UHGV virus genome: UHGV-0122175
Length of the DNA: 35,613 bases
Strand: one strand, 5' to 3'
Origin: a virus
Each line of letters opens with the position of its first letter. Position 1 is the stretch's first letter. The position numbers and the translations under genes are program-made. The notes beneath the pieces are model-generated. The model was not told the origin of the DNA. It did not search any database and saw only the letters and a list, made by a program, of their open reading frames with translations. Positions 1,557-14,781 of this stretch are shown in pieces.

Positions 1557-1862
1557 ATGCGGGACTTCATTGCCGATAAAGAGTTATCTGACCACCAACC
1601 ACTTCAGGAAAGTGACGCACTCAGCGGATCCATTGATGCCGCCAACGACGACGAACACGAAGAAAACAAGAAAAAGCGTTCCTACAAAAAAGGAGCGACT
1701 TTACGGCTGGATGGTCCGATCGCCGGGCTTTGCTCTCTGGAAAAAGGCGCGGCATATATTGGGCTAACAAAATCTGCACTGCGCGTAGCCATTCATCGCG
1801 GTCAAATGCCGGGACACAAGACGCGCACAAACCCGGAAGATGAAAACTCAGACGGAGTATAG
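1557..1862 (+). CDS. Cox/excisionase-like HTH protein ending at an in-frame amber codon
   Basis: ATG with good Shine-Dalgarno sequence. Acidic N-terminal region, then an HTH (GAAYIGLTKSALRVAIHRGQMPG) resembling the Cox/Apl family. The frame stops at TAG 1860..1862 but stays open in the same frame to 2078 (WFNAKEWDKLADELPEHEPPEWHNW...). Confidence 0.5.
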   Translation: MRDFIADKELSDHQPLQESDALSGSIDAANDDEHEENKKKRSYKKGATLRLDGPIAGLCSLEKGAAYIGLTKSALRVAIHRGQMPGHKTRTNPEDENSDGV

Positions 1863-2082
1863 TGGTTTAACGCCAAAGAGTGGGACAAGTTGGCTGATGA
1901 GCTACCAGAGCACGAGCCCCCAGAATGGCACAACTGGAAAAGTTACTGGACGTATGACCGCCAGAAAAGGAAGTTCTCTCCAGCTAATAAAGAAGACTGC
2001 CAGACCATTAACGGTAAGCGAGTTTATACAGGCAGAAGCTCAAAACTGAACCAACTCAGAAACAACAGAGGCAACTAATCGT

Positions 2083-2505
2083 ATGAAAACAAACACGTCA
2101 GATTTCACAATAACTATTTCAAAAAATGACCAAGCATTAATTGATAACCTGAAATACCTTGCGGAAAAACATAATAACGGACGAATTGCAATTAATTTAC
2201 GACACATCACAGGAGTAACAATTGTAACCAGTTACTGGCATCTATATCTAATCGCTAAATCAGTACTGGAAAACAAAGATTCTGTTGTCAATGGAAGAGA
2301 TGTAGATACTCTTCCTGCACAAATCAAACCGATAGCCTATCAATTGCGTAATCGTTTTAAAAATGAAGGTGGGATTATATTTGACTTTCCCGCAGCTGTA
2401 GCCGTGAGCTTCTCTCGGGAGGATATACTTCACTCATTTCGTTTTGCTCTATCAGGTGACGAGACATTATGGCAGCTAGAAGATGCCGGGAGCAGCCCGG
2501 CATAA
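2083..2505 (+). CDS. Hypothetical protein (AT-rich accessory gene)
   Basis: 140-aa ORF in a markedly AT-rich stretch, unlike the phage backbone. A long ORF in AT-rich DNA is unlikely by chance. No family recognised. Confidence 0.55.
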   Translation: MKTNTSDFTITISKNDQALIDNLKYLAEKHNNGRIAINLRHITGVTIVTSYWHLYLIAKSVLENKDSVVNGRDVDTLPAQIKPIAYQLRNRFKNEGGIIFDFPAAVAVSFSREDILHSFRFALSGDETLWQLEDAGSSPA

Positions 2506-2838: not shown

Positions 2839-3189
2839 ATGAAACTACAGCGCAATTCTTCACAGCAGCGCTTCCGCAACGGTGCGGAACGCCATGCTAA
2901 CCGTTTCGCTACCAGTGCATCACGTAGCAACTCTCGCTACAGCCTGAGCGAAACACACGCAACGCCGGATGGCTACCCCGTAAAACAAATCGGCGAGCAT
3001 ACCTGGCTGATTGAGAAAGCCGGAATCGTGGTCCACAAATGCCCGCGAAATCCGTTTACCGAAAACCGCATTTTTGCGCTGAGCAGCGGAGACAATCAGT
3101 TCGGACAGGATTTCACATTGTACGAAGCACTACGCACGGTTGATCGCCTGCTGCGTGGACAGAGTTTTATTAAACAGGCTGATTTATAA
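2839..3189 (+). CDS. Hypothetical early-region protein
   Basis: 116-aa ORF, first gene of a co-directional early cluster. No family recognised. Confidence 0.55.
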   Translation: MKLQRNSSQQRFRNGAERHANRFATSASRSNSRYSLSETHATPDGYPVKQIGEHTWLIEKAGIVVHKCPRNPFTENRIFALSSGDNQFGQDFTLYEALRTVDRLLRGQSFIKQADL

Positions 3190-3199
3190 CAGGTGCTTT

Positions 3200-3487
3200 A
3201 TGACTAAAGAACATACTCAGGGTGTATTTATCCGCTTTATTGATTTTCGCGGTGAACTGTTATTACGCGCATCCGCTATTGATGGAGTGGCTCCGGCGGG
3301 GAGAAACGGAACCGCTGAAGCCACTTACGTTTATCTGAACGGCACTCGACTGCTTGTGGAACTTCCGTACCAGAGCGTACGAGAAATCATTAGCGAAGCT
3401 GAAAAGGCACGTCAGGTTAATGGCGATAAACCCTATATCGAAATTATTTGTATGGATTCAGAAGCAGAAATCCAGAAGGCAGATTAA
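3200..3487 (+). CDS. Hypothetical early-region protein
   Basis: ATG at 3200 preceded by AGGTG (MTKEHTQGVFIRF...). Follows the previous stop by 10 bp. Confidence 0.55.
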   Translation: MTKEHTQGVFIRFIDFRGELLLRASAIDGVAPAGRNGTAEATYVYLNGTRLLVELPYQSVREIISEAEKARQVNGDKPYIEIICMDSEAEIQKAD

Positions 3488-6116: not shown

Positions 6117-8939
6117 ATGACGGCAGAGTACATCAGGGACTGGCAGCAACCGCGCCACGCAGTGGGGCGTGAAGGAACGGGGATCCCCGCTCCTGAATCC
6201 GCGCTTTCCTCCTGGCTGGATGCCTACCGGGTAGAGAACGAACGCCGCCAGGAAATGGCTGATGCGGCGTTCTCCACCACGCCGCTGGGCAACCTGATTA
6301 ATAAAAGCCTGGACGCACAGGAAAAACAGGACAAAACCATCACACTGGCAGGAGACGCCAGAAAACAGGCACGCGGCGCGGTGGATGAAGCCATGGCCTC
6401 GCTGCGCCTGCTGCCGTCCTATCTACGCGATCCGCTTATTCGCCACCTCTCCTTCCTGCGCAAAAAACAGGAAGCCGATCGCCGGAAAGGCGAAAAGAGC
6501 TGGCAGGCGGAGCGCTATGCACGCGGAACCCTGCGCAAAATATTCGAACGTCTGGATCGCACTGACGGACGCTGGCTGACACCGGGGTATCGCTCCCTTG
6601 CCGGACGCGAACACCTGGACGATTTGCTGTACCTGCCGCAGCTCAACAAACACCAGATACAGACGCTGGCCACCATGACGGCGGCGATGTTCAGCAGCAC
6701 CTTCGAAAAACTCTGCGATGGCTTTGGCGCGACTGATGGCGAACTGACCATGGATGTAACGCTGAAGGCGTATCAGATGCTGGCCCGCATGGCGTTACAC
6801 CTGCACGCCATGCCTCCACATTATGACGCACTGACAACAGACAAAGACCGGAGGAACGAACCGGACACAGAGCTGCTGCCGGGCGCAATCCTTCGCCTGA
6901 CCTGTGCGGAATGGTGGAAACGCAAACTGTGGCTGTTACGTTGCGAGTGGAGAGAAGAACAACTCCGCGCCGCCTGTCTGGTTTCCAGAAAAACATCGCC
7001 CTATCTGAGCCAGGACGCGTTAAGCGAGTTTCGCGCACAGCGCGAGAAAACACGCGATTTCCTGAAAAGTTTCATGCTGGAAAATGAAGACGGGTTCACG
7101 ATTGATCTTGAGACAGTGTATTACGCGGGAGTAAGTAACCCGGTTCACCGTAAGGCAGAAATGATGGCCACCATGAAGGGGCTGGAACTTCTGGCCGAAG
7201 CCCGTGGCGACAAAGCGGTGTTTCTGACTGTCACCTGCCCGTCAAAATACCACGCCACAACAGAGAACGGTCATCCGAATCCCAAATGGAACGGGGCCAC
7301 CATGCGCGACTCCAGCGATTACCTGGTTAACACGTTTTTTGCGGCGGTCCGCAAGAAACTGAACCGCGACGGCCTGCGCTGGTATGGCATCCGCACGGTG
7401 GAGCCTCACCATGACGGCACCGTGCACTGGCATATGATGGTCTTTGCTCATCCGGAAGAAATCGACACCATTGTGTCCCACACCCGCGATATTGCCATTC
7501 AGGAAGATCGTCACGAGCTGGGCGATGATATTACTCCGCGCTTTAAGGCGGAGTATGTCGACGGCTCAAAAGGCACGCCAACCAGCTACATCGCCACCTA
7601 CATCGGAAAAAACCTGGACAGCCGCGCCGTGGATGGCATCGACCCGAAAACGGGCAAGCCACGCGTTGACCACGAAACCGGAAAATCAATGGCCGAGAGC
7701 GTGGAGCGCGCCATCGGCTGGGCGCGCCTTCACCGGGTCCGCCAGTTCCAGTTCTTTGGCATCCCCTCCCGTCAGGTGTGGCGTGAACTGCGCCGCCTTG
7801 CCAGCCAGATGGCACGCAACCCGGAAGGCCCGCAACGGCTGAAGGATGACGCAATGGATGCAGTGCTCGCTGCCGCTGATGCCGGGTGTTTTGCCTCCTA
7901 CATTGAAAAACAGGGCGGCGTACTTGTTCCACGCAAAGACTACCTGATTCGCACCGCCTACGACCTCGCAGATGAGCTGAACGATTACGGCGAACAGAGC
8001 GTACAGATTTACGGGATCTGGTCACCACTCATCGGGGAGTCTTCCCGTGTGTGCACACATCCGGATAACTGGAAGCTGGTAAGACGTAAACCGGAAGCGG
8101 AAGACAGCGCCCGCGAAAATGGTTTTGACCTTCAGGGCGGCCCTGCCGCCCCTTGGACTCGTGGCAATAACTGTCCCCGTGTACAGGAAACGGACAACAA
8201 CGGGACAGAACAGCCGGAAGAACGGCCAGCACCGTGGCCGCAGCTCCCTGACGGCGTTGAAGTGAACGAATGGATGCGCTCACTGAAACGGCACGAACGC
8301 CGGGCGCTGATGCGTTCGCTTCGTGACAAACAGGCAAAAAACAGCCGTGATGAAATGCAGAGCTGGACACAGAGCCGCAAACAGCAGCGGCCTTTGCCTG
8401 ATAACCACGAACTACTCGCTAAAGAATGGCGGGAGTCTGCTGAATCTCTCGGCCTGCATATCGGTGAACAGCAGATGCAGCACCTGTTACGGGGCGGCAG
8501 TCTGTACGTTGACGGCAGCAACATTGCACCGCAGGGATTTGAAATTGTACGCAAACCGGATACCCGACCGGACAGCCGGATCACGCAGCTCTGGCAGCGC
8601 CTGAGCCGTAACCACGGCGTAAGCAGTACGGAGATCCGCCATAACCCGGTCGCCAGCTATCTGGAACAGCTGGGGACATCAGACCCCGAAGCCGCCGCAC
8701 GCCTGGCATCCACACTTCAGCAAGACCAGAACACCATGAAAACACCCGTTACCGTGCTTTCTGACATGCTGCGCGCCATCCGCGACGCAGAGCACGCACA
8801 GAGAATCAGTGAAACCACTGAACGCGCCCGCCGCAAAGCAGACCTGCTGCGGGGTGGCCTGACCAGTGGAAACAAAAAACAGACAGAAACGGGATTCACA
8901 AATCCCGTAAATGAGCAAAAAACGCGCCGCGATATATGA
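6117..8939 (+). CDS. A: Replication initiation protein A (rolling-circle, HUH-type nickase)
   Basis: 940-aa ORF at the end of the early operon. Contains a His-hydrophobic-His motif (TVHWHMMVFAH) and a paired-tyrosine motif (YIATYIGKN) characteristic of phiX174/P2 A-type initiators. Confidence 0.85.
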   Translation: MTAEYIRDWQQPRHAVGREGTGIPAPESALSSWLDAYRVENERRQEMADAAFSTTPLGNLINKSLDAQEKQDKTITLAGDARKQARGAVDEAMASLRLLPSYLRDPLIRHLSFLRKKQEADRRKGEKSWQAERYARGTLRKIFERLDRTDGRWLTPGYRSLAGREHLDDLLYLPQLNKHQIQTLATMTAAMFSSTFEKLCDGFGATDGELTMDVTLKAYQMLARMALHLHAMPPHYDALTTDKDRRNEPDTELLPGAILRLTCAEWWKRKLWLLRCEWREEQLRAACLVSRKTSPYLSQDALSEFRAQREKTRDFLKSFMLENEDGFTIDLETVYYAGVSNPVHRKAEMMATMKGLELLAEARGDKAVFLTVTCPSKYHATTENGHPNPKWNGATMRDSSDYLVNTFFAAVRKKLNRDGLRWYGIRTVEPHHDGTVHWHMMVFAHPEEIDTIVSHTRDIAIQEDRHELGDDITPRFKAEYVDGSKGTPTSYIATYIGKNLDSRAVDGIDPKTGKPRVDHETGKSMAESVERAIGWARLHRVRQFQFFGIPSRQVWRELRRLASQMARNPEGPQRLKDDAMDAVLAAADAGCFASYIEKQGGVLVPRKDYLIRTAYDLADELNDYGEQSVQIYGIWSPLIGESSRVCTHPDNWKLVRRKPEAEDSARENGFDLQGGPAAPWTRGNNCPRVQETDNNGTEQPEERPAPWPQLPDGVEVNEWMRSLKRHERRALMRSLRDKQAKNSRDEMQSWTQSRKQQRPLPDNHELLAKEWRESAESLGLHIGEQQMQHLLRGGSLYVDGSNIAPQGFEIVRKPDTRPDSRITQLWQRLSRNHGVSSTEIRHNPVASYLEQLGTSDPEAAARLASTLQQDQNTMKTPVTVLSDMLRAIRDAEHAQRISETTERARRKADLLRGGLTSGNKKQTETGFTNPVNEQKTRRDI
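8889..8908. repeat. 20-bp palindrome ACGGGATT-n4-AATCCCGT (copy 1, inside the 3' end of A)
   Basis: Perfect 8-bp inverted arms, read directly from the sequence. Confidence 0.6.
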
Positions 8940-8961
8940 AGCGCGCATAAAACAGGCAAAA

Positions 8962-8981
8962 ACGGGATTTCAGAATCCCGT
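8962..8981. repeat. 20-bp palindrome ACGGGATT-n4-AATCCCGT (copy 2, upstream of parM-like gene)
   Basis: Same arms as copy 1. Centres are 73 bp apart, about seven helical turns. Confidence 0.6.
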
Positions 8982-9015
8982 AAACGATTAATTAATCAAC
9001 ATAAGGAAAAGCGAC

Positions 9016-9975
9016 ATGAAAATTTGTATCGATGACGGCTCCACCAACATCAAGCTGGCATGGACTGAGAACGGCGAACGCCGCAACGCCATCAGCCCAA
9101 ACAGCTTCAAGTCGGAATGGTCTGCGCCGTTCGGTGGCACGCAGCCCGCGAACTACATGCTTGATGGCGTGCGCTATGGTTTTGATCCGGTCAGCGATCG
9201 CTTTGTCCAGACGACCGACACGCAATACCAGTACAGCGATGTGAATGTCATTGCCATTCATCACGCGCTGGTCAAATCAGGCATCACACCACAGGAAGTG
9301 GATGTGGTTGTCACCCTGCCACTGAGCGAATATTTCGACACAAACGCACAGCCGGACATGGCCAACATCAACCGCAAAAAAGCGAACGTTATGCGCCCGG
9401 TGGAGTACCAGAACGGCGAAGCATTCACTATCCGTAACGTGCGGGTTATGCCTGAATCCATTCCGGCTGGCTTTAAGGCACTGGCTGACATGAGTCCGTT
9501 TGAATCCCTGCTGATTGTGGATTTGGGCGGAACCACGCTGGATGTGGCAAAGGTTCAGGGGCAACTGGCAGGTATCAGCCAGGTGTTTTGCGATCCACAC
9601 GTAGGCGTTTCTCTGATGGCCGATGCCGTACTGTCGGTGATGGCCACTAACGGTATGCGCACCAGTCACCACATCGCCAATACCATTATCGAACATCGCC
9701 ATGATGAAGCCTGGTTGCGCCAGCACATCCACAATGACGCGCATTACGCCAGCCTGATGGCGGTTATTCGTGAAAAGGAAGAAACACTGAAACAACGAGT
9801 GATCCGCGCGCTGGCGGGGTTTTCGGGTTACGGGCGGGTGATGGTTGTCGGTGGCGGGGCGGAGATTGTGGCACCCGCTATCCGCGAAGCCTGCGGAGTT
9901 AATGCGACTTTCATCGCGGACGGGGTGCCACAGTTTGCTCTGGTTAATGGGCTGTACGCAATGGACAAGGAGTAA
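9016..9975 (+). CDS. parM: Actin-like segregation ATPase, ParM/StbA family
   Basis: 319 aa. N-terminus MKICIDDGSTNIKLAW closely matches the plasmid R1 ParM N-terminus as I recall it (MLVFIDDGSTNIKLQW). Also has the actin-fold phosphate motif IVDLGGTTLD and C-terminal VMVVGGGAE. Strong AAGGAA ribosome-binding site. Confidence 0.8.
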   Translation: MKICIDDGSTNIKLAWTENGERRNAISPNSFKSEWSAPFGGTQPANYMLDGVRYGFDPVSDRFVQTTDTQYQYSDVNVIAIHHALVKSGITPQEVDVVVTLPLSEYFDTNAQPDMANINRKKANVMRPVEYQNGEAFTIRNVRVMPESIPAGFKALADMSPFESLLIVDLGGTTLDVAKVQGQLAGISQVFCDPHVGVSLMADAVLSVMATNGMRTSHHIANTIIEHRHDEAWLRQHIHNDAHYASLMAVIREKEETLKQRVIRALAGFSGYGRVMVVGGGAEIVAPAIREACGVNATFIADGVPQFALVNGLYAMDKE

Positions 9976-9979
9976 ACCA

Positions 9980-10294
9980 ATGACGACTCCAACCAGACGG
10001 ATAAGTTTCTATCTGAAGCCAGCAGCCGTCAAGAGTGAACGAGAAGCGTGTAATTATCTCGACAGCCTGCCAGCCTCCGAACGCAGCCGCGCGCAACGCG
10101 CGGCATTTCTGGCTGGACTGGCGCTTATTAAAAGCGATCCCGCCTTTGCTTACTGGCTGGCTGAATGGCAGGAAGAGGAAGCAATACCACCAAGAAATAA
10201 CATCCGAAACAAGCATACTGGCACATCTGCAACAGAAAACAGTCACAGTAAGAGCCAGTTAAAAAGGAACATTCAGGAGTTTTTCCCAGAATAA
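9980..10294 (+). CDS. parR: ParR-like centromere-binding adaptor
   Basis: 105 aa from ATG 9980, with AAGGAG upstream, directly after parM. The segment YLDSLPASERSRAQRAAFLAGLAL resembles R1 ParR (LDSIPQGERSRLNRAALTAGLAL, from memory). Confidence 0.65.
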   Translation: MTTPTRRISFYLKPAAVKSEREACNYLDSLPASERSRAQRAAFLAGLALIKSDPAFAYWLAEWQEEEAIPPRNNIRNKHTGTSATENSHSKSQLKRNIQEFFPE

Positions 10295-10300
10295 CCTACA

Positions 10301-10325
10301 AACACCCTTCACGGGTGTTTTTTCA
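10301..10325 (+). terminator. Intrinsic terminator after the parMR-like operon
   Basis: AACACCC-ttcac-GGGTGTT stem followed by TTTTTT. Confidence 0.6.
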
Positions 10326-10339
10326 TGTTTACCCTAATA

Positions 10340-10381
10340 ATCGATCTGTTAAACAGATAGATATTGATTTATCTATCGATT
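10340..10381. promoter_or_regulatory. Operator-like cluster of palindromes upstream of the orphan genes
   Basis: ATCTGTT-A-AACAGAT and ATAGATA-n6-TATCTAT inverted repeats, bracketed by ATCGAT. A TTGACA -35-like hexamer follows at 10398..10403. Confidence 0.3.
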
Positions 10382-10470
10382 AAAACGATCAATACCCTTG
10401 ACAGTTGTATGGGATTTTGTAGGATCGATCACGATATGACCACTTTGTTTGTGTGTCATGCATAGGAAAA

Positions 10471-10498
10471 CGCCCCAATAGCGGTAACTATTGGGGCG
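10471..10498. other. Perfect 11-bp stem-loop
   Basis: CGCCCCAATAG-cggtaa-CTATTGGGGCG. On the minus strand it is followed by TTTTCC, which looks like a terminator. On the plus strand it would sit in the 5' UTR of the 10604 gene. Confidence 0.35.
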
Positions 10499-10603
10499 CC
10501 AAAGAAATCGAGGTGTCATCTACCTCTTGAGCTCGCCGGAATCGTATTTTCTGCGTGTGCCCATGTAAAGGTGAACACCTCATTTTATTGAGGTAAATCA
10601 AAT

Positions 10604-10882
10604 ATGGGTATAAAGATTTGTAAAAACTCCCACCGATACAACCCCCAATACTCACACCTTCCCGATAACCAGGGACAGACAGGCCGCCACCGCTGCGCTG
10701 CCTGCGCATACGAGCTTGGTGTACTTCACGCAATGATCGGTATTCCTAAAGCTAAAGATGATTCCTTCCTGGCAAATATTCCATATAGCCAGGCTGGCAC
10801 AGTCAGACATAAAGACGCCTTTGAGGCATACATGCTTGGGTACGACTATGCAATGAGCAGCGCACTGCTCAAAGCTGCATAA
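10604..10882 (+). CDS. Hypothetical protein (orphan gene 1 in the A-Q hotspot)
   Basis: 92 aa, GAGGT ribosome-binding site, lower GC than the backbone. Contains a Cys/His cluster (CKNSH...HRCAAC). No family recognised. Confidence 0.5.
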   Translation: MGIKICKNSHRYNPQYSHLPDNQGQTGRHRCAACAYELGVLHAMIGIPKAKDDSFLANIPYSQAGTVRHKDAFEAYMLGYDYAMSSALLKAA

Positions 10883-10948
10883 CGATTTCTGCTTTTTCAC
10901 CACCTCAACAATAGTTGGAGAGGTGGTTCTTCTGAAAAGGATAATCAA

Positions 10949-11236
10949 ATGACCGATATTAAAAGAAGCGATTTATTTTATGACGATTACAGTTGGACTG
11001 CTTTGCCAGGAGATGATCCCACGAAAACCGCTGCTGACCGCCATCGGTTTAGCCGCAAAGAGGGTTATGAAGTACTAAATATGCTTAATTCCTTTAAGGC
11101 ATACTCCCTGAAAGAGAAACTCATTGTCGAATGGATGATTCACGAACACTTACCATCAGGTATTCAGGGAAGGGAAAATGTTAAAGACTGGATTAAACAA
11201 AACTTCCTCAAATTCAAGTTAATTTATCCACGCTGA
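10949..11236 (+). CDS. Hypothetical protein (orphan gene 2 in the A-Q hotspot)
   Basis: 95 aa, AAAGGA ribosome-binding site, AT-rich. Separated from gene 1 by an 8-bp stem hairpin (10899..10927). No family recognised. Confidence 0.5.
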   Translation: MTDIKRSDLFYDDYSWTALPGDDPTKTAADRHRFSRKEGYEVLNMLNSFKAYSLKEKLIVEWMIHEHLPSGIQGRENVKDWIKQNFLKFKLIYPR

Positions 11237-11532
11237 CTGAATATCAGAGAATGAAACCCTGAACGGGCGCACAAACGAAACGAGCGTGCCATGCCCGACG
11301 CACATACAAAGGCGGAGATGCACTCTCCGCCTCATAGTGGTTAACGCATTTAGAAAACATCAAATTTGTCAAACAATCTTTCATATTAACCCCTCCAGAT
11401 TCAAACACACTCTGGGATTGTTGTTAGCTAGTCACTGGGATTTTGCGTTTATAGTTTCACCTCGCCCAATCCACTGAAATTTTTAGTCAACTCAAGCTAA
11501 CGCGCGTGTTAAATATATGCTCATTTTCAAAC

Positions 11533-11560
11533 TGCACAATAGTGCACAAATTTGCACAAT
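11533..11560. repeat. Three phased direct repeats of TGCACAA
   Basis: Copies at 11533, 11543 and 11554, about one helical turn apart, in the non-coding region beside the portal gene where cos is expected. Confidence 0.5.
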
Positions 11561-11934
11561 TTTTTTGAACGACTTTTTGCCCTTCCGGCCCGCATGGCGG
11601 CTGGATCCGTCAGGGATCCGTGCGTGCACAAAAAAACGCGCTTTTTCTGCGCGCAGGTGACGGGGGAACAGCCCGCGTTTCAGGGGGTAAATAGCATTCC
11701 CTGAACGATGTCGCAGAGATACAACAGAATGGCTGTCTTTCTCACGCTGAGCGTGAAAAAGACGTGAGGGCTTTTGATTTGATGGGGTGGCAGATAAGGC
11801 CGTCAAAATCGCACTGAGGCGGCGAGAACATGCAGTCAGCGCGATGGGATTGCGTAAGAGCCTGACCGCCGATGATGGCAATAAGCTGGAAGGCGTCGTG
11901 AAATTATCTGATTGATACAGGAGCTGGAGAGTCG

Positions 11935-11957
11935 GGGCATAAATTTTTTATGCCCCG
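11935..11957. other. Stem-loop downstream of the portal gene
   Basis: GGGGCAT-aaatttttt-ATGCCCC, just 3' of the Q stop on the minus strand. It has no clear U-tail, so terminator status is uncertain. Confidence 0.35.
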
Positions 11958-11983
11958 GCGAAGCAGCAGACAAGCGAAGCGCG

Positions 11984-13030
11984 TCAGGATGTGGGCGGGG
12001 TGTCCAGCAGTGCGTAAGGGTTAAAGCGGATCACCTCTTCGCCAAGCCAGTCATTGATGTGCTTCATGGCCTCCATAACGGGCATCAGTTCGTTAATTGC
12101 GTAAACCCGCGCGGCCTTCTCCACATCACCAAACGCACTTTTTTCACCCGGCATCGCCCCCATCAGTTGCGGCGGAACGCGGTGCGCAGCCAGCACATCA
12201 TCACGGGATGCCACCTTAACATTCATGAACTCATCTTTTGCGGTGATCTGCTGGAACGGCAAAATTTGCACCCCCTCTTTGCCCCCATTGGGCGCATGAA
12301 TGAGCACGTTTTTAAATGCACCACCACCACGTGCACCCTGTAGCGTTTCCTTCAGGGAGTCCATGCTTTCGCGGTTTACCTGCGCTGCACCGATGTAGAT
12401 GATGCACCCGGCGTGGGATCCATTGTCGTAGTACAGTTTTCTGAACATGTCCGCCGAATGAGACAGGCTGGCCGAGAGTAATGCGCCGAGATATTCCGGC
12501 ATGCCGTAGATTTCCTGGTTAATGTCAGGATTCATCAGGTGGCACACTTTGCCAGGGCGAAACTGAAACGCATCCTTACCATCCTGCACATACCACCATG
12601 ATTCAAGATCGCTTCCGCGTCGCATGTATTTCGCCAGGGCGTGCCGTAATTTAAGCGGTTCGCCGAGCATATTGCTCCGAAGCTCAAGGAATGCGTTACC
12701 GAACACAAACCAGTCCAGCGCCAGCGCCGAGAAATCCTGCCGGGAAAGCAGCGGGTGCGGGATGTAGCAACCGAGCAATACATTACGCTTAAAGTAAAGC
12801 GCAGACTGATGCCAGGACGTTTGCCGGGCAGCTCTTGCCAGACCGTACCAGTCCACCGGGGTTTCATACCACCGCCCGTTATCAGCACAGTACATATTGT
12901 CCAGCAAATCATGCCCGGTCAGGCGATAAGGACCATCAAATGTGAATGCACTGAGCGACGATTCTTTCCTGAGCGCATCAGCGAGATCAATGCGTGAACT
13001 CATGCGCACTTTTTTATTTTTTCTGCTCAT
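11984..13030 (-). CDS. Q: Portal protein (P2 Q-like)
   Basis: 348 aa, close to P2 Q in size. Divergent from the O-N-M-L operon and adjacent to the large terminase, as in P2. Confidence 0.9.
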   Translation of the reverse strand: MSRKNKKVRMSSRIDLADALRKESSLSAFTFDGPYRLTGHDLLDNMYCADNGRWYETPVDWYGLARAARQTSWHQSALYFKRNVLLGCYIPHPLLSRQDFSALALDWFVFGNAFLELRSNMLGEPLKLRHALAKYMRRGSDLESWWYVQDGKDAFQFRPGKVCHLMNPDINQEIYGMPEYLGALLSASLSHSADMFRKLYYDNGSHAGCIIYIGAAQVNRESMDSLKETLQGARGGGAFKNVLIHAPNGGKEGVQILPFQQITAKDEFMNVKVASRDDVLAAHRVPPQLMGAMPGEKSAFGDVEKAARVYAINELMPVMEAMKHINDWLGEEVIRFNPYALLDTPPTS

Positions 13031-14781
13031 CAGAACTCCATAACCGTAAAACGCTCGTTTTCTCCTTCGCCGCCAATCGGTTCGTTAATGACAGCAAGCA
13101 TGGTTGCCCACGCAAGGTCGCCGTGGCTGATCCCCCTCGCACGGTCCGTTTCGTAAGTGATAAAGCCGCCCGGTGTTTTCACCTTACGCACGGCGTTAAA
13201 GGCTGCGACCAGCTCGCGTTCGGCGCGATCATATTCCCACCGCCCGGCACGCATTATTTGCAGCATTTTCAGTACCAGCGACCGTTTTGATGACAGCGTG
13301 AAGGTGTACGGAATAGCAGCAGGGAAAAACCGTTTCACTATCTGATAAACAGCCTCCCCGTTCCCGCCCGTCACATCAATGCCGATGTGTTCCACGTTGT
13401 AGCGACACGTGAACTCTTCAATGACTCTGGCCTGTTCTTCAAACTCCAGCCCCTGAACGCGTCGCGTCTCCACCGTTCGAAAACGGCCTCCAGGAACAGC
13501 CGGAGGAACCACCACGGACACAGCGCCGCTGTCGCCGTTTCCACTGCTGCCGTTTGCGTCATACCCAATCCATACCGGACGATTCCCCATCGGGCGGGGA
13601 GCAAAAGGTTTCCAGTCTTTCCAGTCGTCGTATCCGTCAACACCGCAGCCAATCAGGATATTCAGGTTAAATGCCGATTCCCCTTCGCGGACAAACTCAC
13701 ACATATAGAGATTGCGGAACTCGTCTTCGGTGTTTTCATCACGAATTTCGTCAATATCGGTGTGTTTCCAGCCGTGATTAACCACATCTTCCAGCGTGAC
13801 AATTTGCCGCCACGTCCGGTCAGGGCAGATAAGCCCGTTATGCAGCGTTTTCCAGTCCACAGAAAAACGCTGGCGTTTATGCGTGGCCTTTTTCTCGTTC
13901 CAGCGGTCGCCGTTCCAGTAGGCGTATGCCTCGTGCGTTTCGGTGGATGGCGTGGAGAAGTAGGTGCGCCGCAGTCCGCTGAGGGTTGCCATAGCGCCAG
14001 CCACCTTGCGCAGTTCAGCAAAGCGACTGACCCAGAAAAATTCATCAAAATAAAAATTGCCCGTGTAGGACTGTGCCGTCGCAGCAGAAGTACCAAGAAA
14101 ATGCAGCTCTGCGCCGTTGGAGAGGATGATTTTATCGCCCCCTTTCAGCTCCACATCAACTTCAGATGCAGCCTTCTGAATAATGCTTTTAAACTGGAAC
14201 ACCTGACGACGCGACGCAGACAAAAAAATCTGGTTACGCTGGTAAGGTTGCGCCACATCGTCACGCAGCGCCATCAGCAGTGCTTCCTGTGCAAAATACC
14301 ATGTCGCTCCAATCTGTCGGGATTTCAGGATCATCCTGTTACGTATCCCGGCTTCCCTGCAAAGGGTCAGGGAGTCAAACCAGCCCCGCTGATGCCACTC
14401 CAGCCTGCTGATGATTTTTTCCCGCAGCGCGGCAATCTGTTCCGGCGTGAAATGATTTTTGAGTTTTTTCGCCCGGCCTTTCTTTCCTGTGGCCATCACA
14501 TCCGGCTGGCCATCATGCAGCTTTTTAAGCTGCCGGGTCAGCAGGTCTATTTCCTTAAAGTCACCGCCTGTTTTATTCTGTTTTTCAGTAAGCTGGATGA
14601 GGCGCGCATCGATGGACTGCGTGACACGCTGCACGGGTGGCGTTTCATCCCACTGGTCACGTTTTTTCCACGCATAAATCGTGTTCGGGTTTATTCCCAT
14701 CAGACGTGATATTTCTGCGGGCGGATAACCCTGCCAGTAAAGTTGCCGCGCACGCTGGCGCACAAAAGCGTCCTGAATCAT
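13030..14781 (-). CDS. P: Terminase large (ATPase) subunit (P2 P-like)
   Basis: 583 aa, size and position match P2 P. Stop/start overlap with the portal gene. Confidence 0.9.
   Translation of the reverse strand: MIQDAFVRQRARQLYWQGYPPAEISRLMGINPNTIYAWKKRDQWDETPPVQRVTQSIDARLIQLTEKQNKTGGDFKEIDLLTRQLKKLHDGQPDVMATGKKGRAKKLKNHFTPEQIAALREKIISRLEWHQRGWFDSLTLCREAGIRNRMILKSRQIGATWYFAQEALLMALRDDVAQPYQRNQIFLSASRRQVFQFKSIIQKAASEVDVELKGGDKIILSNGAELHFLGTSAATAQSYTGNFYFDEFFWVSRFAELRKVAGAMATLSGLRRTYFSTPSTETHEAYAYWNGDRWNEKKATHKRQRFSVDWKTLHNGLICPDRTWRQIVTLEDVVNHGWKHTDIDEIRDENTEDEFRNLYMCEFVREGESAFNLNILIGCGVDGYDDWKDWKPFAPRPMGNRPVWIGYDANGSSGNGDSGAVSVVVPPAVPGGRFRTVETRRVQGLEFEEQARVIEEFTCRYNVEHIGIDVTGGNGEAVYQIVKRFFPAAIPYTFTLSSKRSLVLKMLQIMRAGRWEYDRAERELVAAFNAVRKVKTPGGFITYETDRARGISHGDLAWATMLAVINEPIGGEGENERFTVMEF

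Follow-up and report, generated by a model that had tools for sequence, protein, structure and literature searches.

In UHGV-0122175, a stretch of 35,613 nucleotides that is an Escherichia coli P2-like prophage (this whole 35.6-kb stretch is called the window here), the intergenic region between parR and the gene ORF92 was found to hold a compact set of regulatory elements that accompanies ORF92 homologues in other phages. On balance, this interval probably serves as the control region of a prophage cargo gene (moron) that is self-contained and horizontally mobile. The elements are two palindromes, P1 and P2, a predicted forward sigma-70 promoter, P(+), with GATC sites over and beside it, a structured mRNA leader, and an opposing sigma-70-like promoter, P(-), predicted to produce a cis-antisense RNA that would end at a GC-rich hairpin (Table 1). 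An earlier note, made from the sequence alone, had drawn attention to this region and proposed that it holds more regulatory architecture than a simple constitutive moron would need. A regulated rather than constitutive promoter region is supported by the conserved convergent promoter, the hairpin and the positionally conserved GATC sites, while the leader length of 280 bp given in that note needs correction, as the intergenic gap is 309 bp.

A probable conserved minus-strand RNA

The perfect stem-loop described in the earlier note is present, with an 11-bp stem and a 6-nt loop, and the U-run that follows it on the minus strand (UUUUCC, 10470-10465) is short. The suggestion that this hairpin ends a short antisense RNA is supported at the level of sequence by P(-), by a nearly fixed spacing between P(-) and the hairpin, by covariation and by G.U pairs that form on the minus strand.

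The pattern TTTACA-N17-TAnnnT was found on the minus strand in all 53 enteric-type leaders (42 distinct). In these the TTTACA is invariant and at least eight different -10 hexamers occur (including TACGAT, TAAAAT, TAGACT, TAATCT, TACTCT, TAGTAT, TAGTCT and TAAACT). Read on the plus strand the invariant element is TGTAAA, which in the first 34 leaders scored precedes the ATG by 35-40 nt. The predicted P(+) and P(-) starts face each other, 99-113 bp apart, and in most subfamilies the end of the GC hairpin is reached 63-72 nt beyond the start predicted for the minus strand. The exceptions are the L002 type, with a predicted antisense RNA of 92 nt (L002 6132-6230), and L117, with one of 133 nt (2289-2431). 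The L002 type, which is common in E. coli, has a different, longer antisense 5' body, and L117, a Yersinia-type contig, has an insertion of approximately 65 nt in the antisense RNA; promoter and terminator hairpin are retained in both.

An alignment of 24 distinct antisense RNAs gave the hairpin as the consensus helix in RNAalifold. MAFFT misaligns the window subfamily at antisense stem-loop 1, and the covariation figures given here are those of the hairpin. Compensatory double changes were seen in nine of its 10 pairs, and 89% of the hairpin cells are paired, compared to 63% in shuffled alignments. The number of double-change cells was 70, against 20.5 in shuffles, with none of 500 shuffles reaching a value as high, and the covariation score of 0.74 fell to 0.22 or less when the partners were slid. 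Among 18 distinct hairpins, G.U pairs occur 16 times when the minus strand is folded and never on the plus strand; seven of the 16 are internal, spread over at least six sequence variants. Because these wobble pairs fit the minus strand only, the hairpin acts on the minus strand.

The predicted antisense RNA of the window is fully complementary, by position, to approximately +35 to +103 of the ORF92 leader, and has a predicted fold of -29.4 kcal/mol (z -4.5 versus shuffles). A covariance model found a single match in the window (10461-10537, minus strand, 49.7 bits, E 5e-10) and matched every enteric ORF92 locus searched, including L200 and L201, which were not in the training set. Only weak terminator-like matches of approximately 22 bits were found in 25 par loci without ORF92, and there was no match in the Bacteroidales or distant ORF92-homologue loci. 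Rfam contains no such family; the only matches were below threshold, to NsiR1 (RF02399, 29.6 bits against a gathering threshold of 39) and to sar, and were confined to the generic hairpin. As NsiR1 is a cyanobacterial family, that match reflects a generic stem-loop-plus-terminator shape. In three distant relatives of ORF92 (L191, L195 and L197, 42-46% identity) the TGTAAA/TTTACA element is retained, and L191 and L197 have a hairpin with a longer U-run behind it, on the minus strand only. Taken together, we consider it likely that a conserved minus-strand RNA has the GC hairpin as its 3' structure. A small minus-strand protein (48-amino acid ORF, 10373-10519) was rejected as the product, as it would have to be read through the hairpin and the L111- and L133-type antisense RNAs have no AUG.

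The forward promoter, its GATC sites and the ORF92 leader

The -35-like TTGACA reported earlier was confirmed at 10398-10403, with TAGGAT after a spacer of 16 bp; the form TTGAnn-N16-18-TAnnAT is kept in all subfamilies. The four reported GATC sites (10343, 10387, 10423 and 10427) are also present. Those at 10423 and 10427 lie across the -10 and the start region, and the 10387 site precedes the -35 by 7 bp. Four GATC in 90 bp form the densest such cluster in the window and the only one, which taken alone is marginal (P about 0.1 under random placement).

Across the ORF92 family, the GATC sites flagged earlier proved to be both enriched and conserved in position. Their density in the 260 bp before ORF92 is 14.6/kb, compared to 2.3/kb in the flanks, a 6.3-fold enrichment that was seen in each of 15 subfamilies (Poisson P about 1e-26, the subfamilies not being independent). 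One GATC, 6-7 bp upstream of the -35, is invariant in every enteric subfamily, and in several a GATC lies over the -10 (TAGGATC). Most non-E. coli subfamilies have a GATC at the antisense start (GAGATCTC) and another in the antisense promoter spacer. The sequence GATCTTTT also recurs in most of them, and the pap-type 'GATC box' and Lrp may offer a lead here. The forward promoter is probably Dam-sensitive. The distant relatives L191, L195 and L197 show no GATC enrichment, with at most one site each, and the Dam-site layer may therefore be specific to enteric lineages.

The predicted ORF92 leader is approximately 172 nt long in the window and 166-188 nt across the enteric-type leaders. Its 5' stem-loop appears in both the minimum-free-energy and the centroid structures, and stem-loops are visible by inspection at the corresponding position in other subfamilies. 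Further downstream, the Shine-Dalgarno (SD) sequence is predicted to be sequestered in a hairpin, and in the fold of the full leader (z -4.9 versus shuffles) the AUG is paired as well. Most subfamilies have an equivalent predicted hairpin that buries the SD, and often the AUG too, built from different sequences. The enteric leaders share an order of elements, starting with the terminator of the neighbouring gene, an A/T-rich region, the invariant GATC, the promoter and the 5' stem-loop, and continuing with a purine-rich GGAAA-like stretch, the GC-rich hairpin, an A-rich stretch, TGTAAA and, usually, the SD-burying hairpin.

The palindromes as a putative operator

The back-to-back palindromes noted earlier are present and are beyond chance expectation, and the ATCGAT motifs said to bracket them were found at 10340-10345 and 10376-10381. 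When 10295-10603 was shuffled 3000 times with its dinucleotide composition kept, 2.4% of the shuffles contained an 11-nt inverted repeat with no more than one mismatch, 0.1% a perfect one and 0.07% two distinct 11-nt repeats. Jointly, P1 and P2 form a nested 24-nt inverted repeat, and the centre of P2 is approximately 16 bp upstream of the forward -35. P1 was found once in the window, with 0 occurrences expected by chance. Neither the palindrome nor its half-site recurs in the window beyond chance, and a phage regulator with several sites was rejected on these grounds.

Comparison of the window-type and L002-type cassettes, whose ORF92 proteins are 63% identical, revealed an uneven pattern of divergence. 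P1 is 96% and P2 100% identical, the 8-bp spacer between them only 38%, the promoter spacer 62%, the hairpin 91% and the rest of the leader about 50%. As two conserved blocks flank a diverged spacer, these identities indicate that P1 and P2 are sequence-specific binding sites rather than the product of recent recombination. Their centres are 31 bp apart, equal to three helical turns, which places them on one face of the helix. The best explanation for this arrangement is a conserved operator for a dimeric DNA-binding protein. By inspection, the P2 position of several other subfamilies holds another short palindrome, one that ends in the invariant GATC, for example CAGCT-ATA-AGCTG and ATGATCA-N5-TGATCAT.

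ParR is excluded as the protein bound at P1 and P2 by the co-occurrence data set out below, and ORF95, the gene that follows ORF92 in the window, is absent from L002-type cassettes that retain both palindromes. ORF92 itself or a host factor is a possible binder. Known binding motifs were compared by eye. The LexA (SOS) box requires CTGT-N8-ACAG and was rejected because the window has CTGT-N3-ACAG, the wrong spacing; CTGT-N8-ACAG was found only in the Escherichia whittamii-type leaders L006 and L110. There is no TGT-N12-ACA of the P2 Ogr type, P2 Cox boxes were matched twice at seven of nine positions, which is unconvincing, a variable spacer speaks against a Fur box, and no good match to IHF or CRP sites was found within the window.

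The module travels with ORF92

The interval sits directly after parM/parR in the P2 gpA-portal interval, a published cargo and defence hotspot also called gpA-gpQ (Rousset et al. 2022, PMC9122126; 2026 NAR, PMC13586616), where about a quarter of P2-like phages carry the partition system parMR (PMC9122126). Neither of these articles mentions antisense RNAs, the palindromes or the ORF92 cassette, and the cassette was not found in the literature on P2 hotspots and prophage transcriptomes. The predicted antisense-controlled cassette, which recurs in many enterobacterial phages, is previously undescribed.

When 80 parR-containing viral contigs were scored for ParM, ParR, ORF92 and ORF95, 47 distinct post-parR sequences were obtained. 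The palindrome-promoter-hairpin module was present in every ORF92 locus and in no locus without ORF92. The latter (about 25 distinct sequences) have unrelated cargo straight after parR. In one locus, L003, approximately 130 bp are inserted between parR and the module, which puts the left edge of the module near 10328 and its extent at about 10328-10603. The sequence comparisons indicate that the module travels with ORF92 rather than with the par genes. A blastn search of E. coli genomes recovered seven near-identical loci and 166 further loci with approximately 75% identity that cover only 10336-10498 of the window.

Two P2-like phages, Escherichia phage 520873 (CP025923/NC_049344) and 503458 (CP025874/NC_049341), carry parMR together with an L002-type cassette. 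Both were deposited as separate 31-38 kb records from enterotoxigenic E. coli (ETEC) genome projects, which fits plasmid maintenance of these P2-like phages.

The ORF92 family

The earlier note called the genes downstream of the interval orphans, which they are not; ORF92 and ORF95 match phrog_3941 and phrog_33929, respectively. The phrog_3941 gene was found in P2-like, P22-like and lambdoid phages of Escherichia, Salmonella, Yersinia, Rahnella, Proteus and Providencia. Homologues that are not accompanied by parMR (55-68% identity) occur in Providencia, Proteus, E. whittamii, Yersinia, Rahnella and many viral contigs, and the same type of architecture also precedes homologues of this kind, including those of P22-like Salmonella and lambdoid Providencia phages. 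In Salmonella phage BIS08P22 (Lederbergvirus) the homologue is located just after cI, between cI and the N gene, and in Providencia phage PSTCR7lys the Q antiterminator and the lysis genes flank it. The P2 hotspot, the cI-N slot and the Q-lysis slot are classic moron or defence slots.

ORF92 was not called by RefSeq PGAP in any of the three E. coli genomes examined (L001 6311-6589, L002 6299-6568 and L003 6281-6559). In BIS08P22 (L200, 4665-4901), an annotated hypothetical protein (UWV16653.1) overlies the cassette promoter and leader and is therefore probably spurious. ORF92 has no match in Pfam, NCBIfam or PADLOC, and no PADLOC model matches ORF95. With the predicted RNA missing from Rfam, a widespread module of regulatory RNA and small protein appears to have been missed by annotation.

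A large protein search with ORF92 returned seven unnamed clusters. The product is probably a small zinc-binding protein. It is hydrophilic (GRAVY -0.36), and a maximum Kyte-Doolittle(19) value of 1.08 indicates no transmembrane segment. Non-phage homologues (40-50% identity) are embedded in GATC-type restriction-modification operons in the Bacteroidales and in metagenome contigs (Table 1), and these link the cargo to GATC methylation biology.

In the window, ORF92 and ORF95 are separated by a hairpin, CCACCTC...GAGGTGG (10900-10926), with a weak T-run, and a promoter-like site, TGGAGA-N18-GATAAT (10916-10945), is located just ahead of ORF95. As ORF95 is found only in window-type cassettes, it may be a separately acquired add-on.

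Table 1. Coordinates of the features of the ORF92 cassette, its surroundings in the window and its homologues in other loci
Feature	Coordinates	Strand	Remarks
Intergenic region flagged by the earlier note	10295-10603
P1, putative distal operator	10340-10362		ATCGATCTGTT-A-AACAGATAGAT; 10/11 arm positions complementary; GATC at 10343 in left arm
P2, putative proximal operator	10371-10393		ATCTATCGATT-A-AAACGATCAAT; GATC 10387 in right arm
Forward promoter P(+), predicted	10398..10425	+	TTGACA-N16-TAGGAT; 10/12 consensus positions; predicted start about 10432
5' stem-loop of ORF92 mRNA leader, predicted	10435..10460	+	In minimum-free-energy and centroid structures
Predicted cis-antisense RNA, ~68 nt	10466..10534	-	5' tail, stem-loop 1 (GAGGU/ACCUC), U-rich linker, terminator hairpin
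Perfect 11-bp GC-rich hairpin, 6-nt loop	10471..10498	-	Putative antisense 3' terminator stem-loop
Antisense promoter P(-), predicted	10541..10569	-	TTTACA 10569-10564, 17-bp spacer, TACGAT 10546-10541; predicted start 10534
SD-sequestering hairpin, predicted	10577..10594	+	ACCUCA...UGAGGU; SD GAGGU 10590-10594
ORF92, putative regulated gene	10604..10882	+	92 amino acids; phrog_3941
ORF95	10949..11236	+	phrog_33929; in window-type loci, absent from L002-type
Replication endonuclease (gpA-like)	6117-8939	+
ParM	9016-9975	+	PF06406/PF21523
ParR/StbB	9980-10294	+	PF10784
Intrinsic terminator of parR	10300..10320	+	8-bp stem then T-run; outside the cassette, its left neighbour
Non-coding stretch, ~750 bp	about 11240-11980
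Portal	11984-13030	-
Terminase	13030-14781	-
ORF92 homologue in L010 (Bacteroidales)	1833-2102		Order: D12 (Dam-like) methyltransferase, DpnII endonuclease, homologue, N6_N4 methyltransferase
ORF92 homologue in L009 (Bacteroidales)	3004-3279		Order: D12 methyltransferase, homologue, DUF6996/6997, N6_N4 methyltransferase
ORF92 homologue in L202-L206 (metagenome contigs)	960-1226 in L202		Homologue, D12 and N6_N4 methyltransferases, with MutH-like and HTH genes alongside

Proposed mechanism

The mechanism we propose builds on the observed anatomy and conservation of the module and on the covariation and acting strand of its hairpin. P(+) would make an ORF92 mRNA with a structured leader in which the SD and the AUG are locked in a hairpin; as both are paired in the leader fold, translation of ORF92 probably needs an upstream activating event. 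The convergent P(-), approximately 100 bp downstream, would make the short cis-antisense RNA that ends at the 11-bp hairpin and its U-run. This RNA would silence ORF92 by masking a region further upstream that serves ribosome loading or activation, by turning the leader into a target of RNase III, or in both ways, and convergent transcription may add interference. P1 and P2 would be an operator bound by a dimeric DNA-binding protein just upstream of the -35, and the GATC sites in both palindromes and over the -10 and start region would make P(+) sensitive to the Dam methylation state. From the sequence we infer the synthesis of both RNAs, the direction of the regulation, the dependence on Dam and the presence of a binding partner for the operator. 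The full mechanism, with a cis-antisense RNA and a Dam-site-bearing promoter controlling a phage moron, is at best probable, and less so than a minus-strand RNA with the hairpin at its 3' end. If correct, it would be an example of layered control of prophage cargo, in which an operator and Dam sites are combined with an antisense RNA and a locked ribosome-binding site.

Several points weigh against this mechanism. P(+) and P(-) are no more than matches to the consensus, and a simple scan for the terminator consensus did not list the hairpin at 10471-10498. The U-tract that follows this hairpin is short, reading UUUUCC in the window and CUUUCC or CCGUCC in several subfamilies. The predicted antisense RNA does not overlap the ribosome-binding site and could even stabilise or activate the ORF92 mRNA. 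The near self-complementarity of the hairpin lets it fold in the mRNA too, where it could also have a role. P1 and P2 are confined to the E. coli P2-like subfamily, and the comparisons made here gave no binder for them. Because the subfamilies are related, the counts covering all leaders are not independent observations.

Alternative explanations

The most far-reaching reading makes the cassette a methylation-state switch, in which a GATC-rich promoter and an antisense RNA control a new small zinc-binding family tied to GATC methylation. We regard this as a tentative possibility, based on the placement of non-phage homologues beside GATC methylases and on the GATC-rich promoter in phages. As part of such a switch, the prophage ORF92 might modulate host Dam, MutH or SeqA, serve as an anti-restriction or defence effector that fires on hemimethylated or unmethylated DNA, as could arise after infection or induction, or be a non-membrane type I toxin.

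Somewhat more doubtful is a strict type I toxin-antitoxin system that stabilises the prophage or aborts infection, with ORF92 as the toxin and the antisense RNA as the antitoxin. The long structured 5' untranslated region, the sequestered ribosome-binding site and the short cis-antisense RNA upstream of that site would all suit such a system, as would the occupation of defence and moron slots in three phage types. However, a hydrophilic protein of 92 amino acids with no transmembrane segment is unlike the classical type I toxins, and the homologues in GATC restriction-modification operons have no antisense RNA at all.

It is unlikely that the role of the hairpin is confined to the plus-strand mRNA, where it would stabilise the 5' end, be processed by RNase III or RNase E or cause a pause, with no discrete antisense RNA and with the conserved TGTAAA as something other than a -35 element. 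In the mRNA all 16 G.U pairs would be C.A mismatches, and such a role does not account for a -10-like TAnnnT exactly 17 bp from TTTACA in every subfamily despite their differing sequences, for a promoter-to-hairpin distance held at 63-72 nt, or for the longer U-run found in distant relatives on the minus strand only. It is favoured by the position of the hairpin within the predicted ORF92 leader, where it folds too (-20 kcal/mol), as well as by the shortness of the minus-strand U-run and the failure of the terminator scan to list the hairpin.

Alternatively, the hairpin, which appears to terminate transcription on the minus strand and marks the left end of the block with conserved DNA sequence (where the blastn matches end, at 10498), might insulate parMR from leftward read-through, either from the cargo or from the late portal/terminase operon, rather than end a dedicated small RNA. 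This is still less likely. The same hairpin-promoter distance is kept in phages with unrelated neighbours (the P22-like cI-N and lambdoid Q-lysis slots), the hairpin is downstream of the cassette's forward promoter and would not protect that promoter, and the cargo has no leftward transcript, ORF92 and ORF95 both being plus-strand genes.

The partition system and its probable centromere

ParMRC centromeres are repeat arrays bound by ribbon-helix-helix ParR proteins. The palindromes lie 45 bp after parR, yet they are very improbable candidates for the parC centromere of the neighbouring ParM/ParR system, or for its autoregulatory operator. All ORF92 loci have them, while the approximately 25 parMR loci without ORF92 have a wholly different sequence after parR and no palindromes, and some 130 bp separates them from parR in L003. 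An identical module accompanies ParR variants with 54% and 100% identity to the window's ParR. The interval lies downstream of parR, with a separate repeat pair upstream of parM, the canonical position of parC.

This repeat is a 42-nt direct repeat (8873-8914 and 8946-8987) with copies that are 81% identical and 73 bp apart. It spans the 3' end of the gpA-like gene and the 76-bp gap before parM, and each copy holds a palindrome, ACGGGATT-N4-AATCCCGT. The repeat at 8873-8987 is probably the real parC centromere and the promoter of ParMR. The palindromes beside parMR are not a centromere, and the probable centromere is placed upstream of parM.

In the P2-like loci L014-L093, ParM is 97-100% identical in nearly all, and ParR falls into discrete classes with 100, about 78, 62-70 and about 54% identity. 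This suggests that ParR/centromere specificities (incompatibility types) are swapped on a constant ParM.

Comparison with known systems

The cassette was compared with known antisense-controlled systems. It has two of the defining features of a cis-antisense small RNA, namely a candidate promoter of its own on the opposite strand (a consensus match) and a conserved structure on the antisense strand. Pairing of the antisense RNA with the mRNA, which a type I toxin-antitoxin system requires, is predicted from complementarity, and the small hydrophobic protein of such systems was not found. A GATC within or next to the predicted core promoter, as in pIN of IS10, is present.

The sar/ant system of P22 (Rfam RF00262) is similar in that sar is a phage cis-antisense RNA of approximately 68 nt, with a promoter just upstream of the regulated gene and a GC hairpin at its end. 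The window hairpin has the same loop, GUUACCGC, as the sar terminator stem-loop and a similar stem. However, the match to RF00262 covers only the hairpin (model positions 35-62) with 23.5 bits against a gathering threshold of 43, sar overlaps the ant ribosome-binding site, and ORF92 is unrelated to Ant. No match to sar was found in seven homologous loci of other subfamilies, and as these show no resemblance, the likeness is probably due to convergence.

In tisB/IstR-1, zorO/OrzO and ldr/rdl, a structured leader sequesters the ribosome-binding site and a small RNA pairs far upstream of it. The layout of the ORF92 leader and the predicted antisense target upstream of the ribosome-binding site are similar. 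In contrast to these systems, ORF92 is not a small hydrophobic peptide, and the antisense RNA would be fully cis-encoded and convergent with the mRNA.

In IS10/Tn10, the weak promoter pIN carries Dam sites and is opposed by pOUT, which produces RNA-OUT, a stable, hairpin-rich RNA of approximately 69 nt that limits translation. The IS10 transcripts overlap for approximately 36 nt at their 5' ends, covering the ribosome-binding site, whereas the predicted starts of the cassette are approximately 100 bp apart and its antisense RNA would cover the middle of the leader rather than the ribosome-binding site. The two share no sequence similarity, and the gene regulated here is not a transposase. Nevertheless, with a GATC over the forward -10, an opposing promoter and a predicted antisense RNA of similar length, IS10 is the closest known design.

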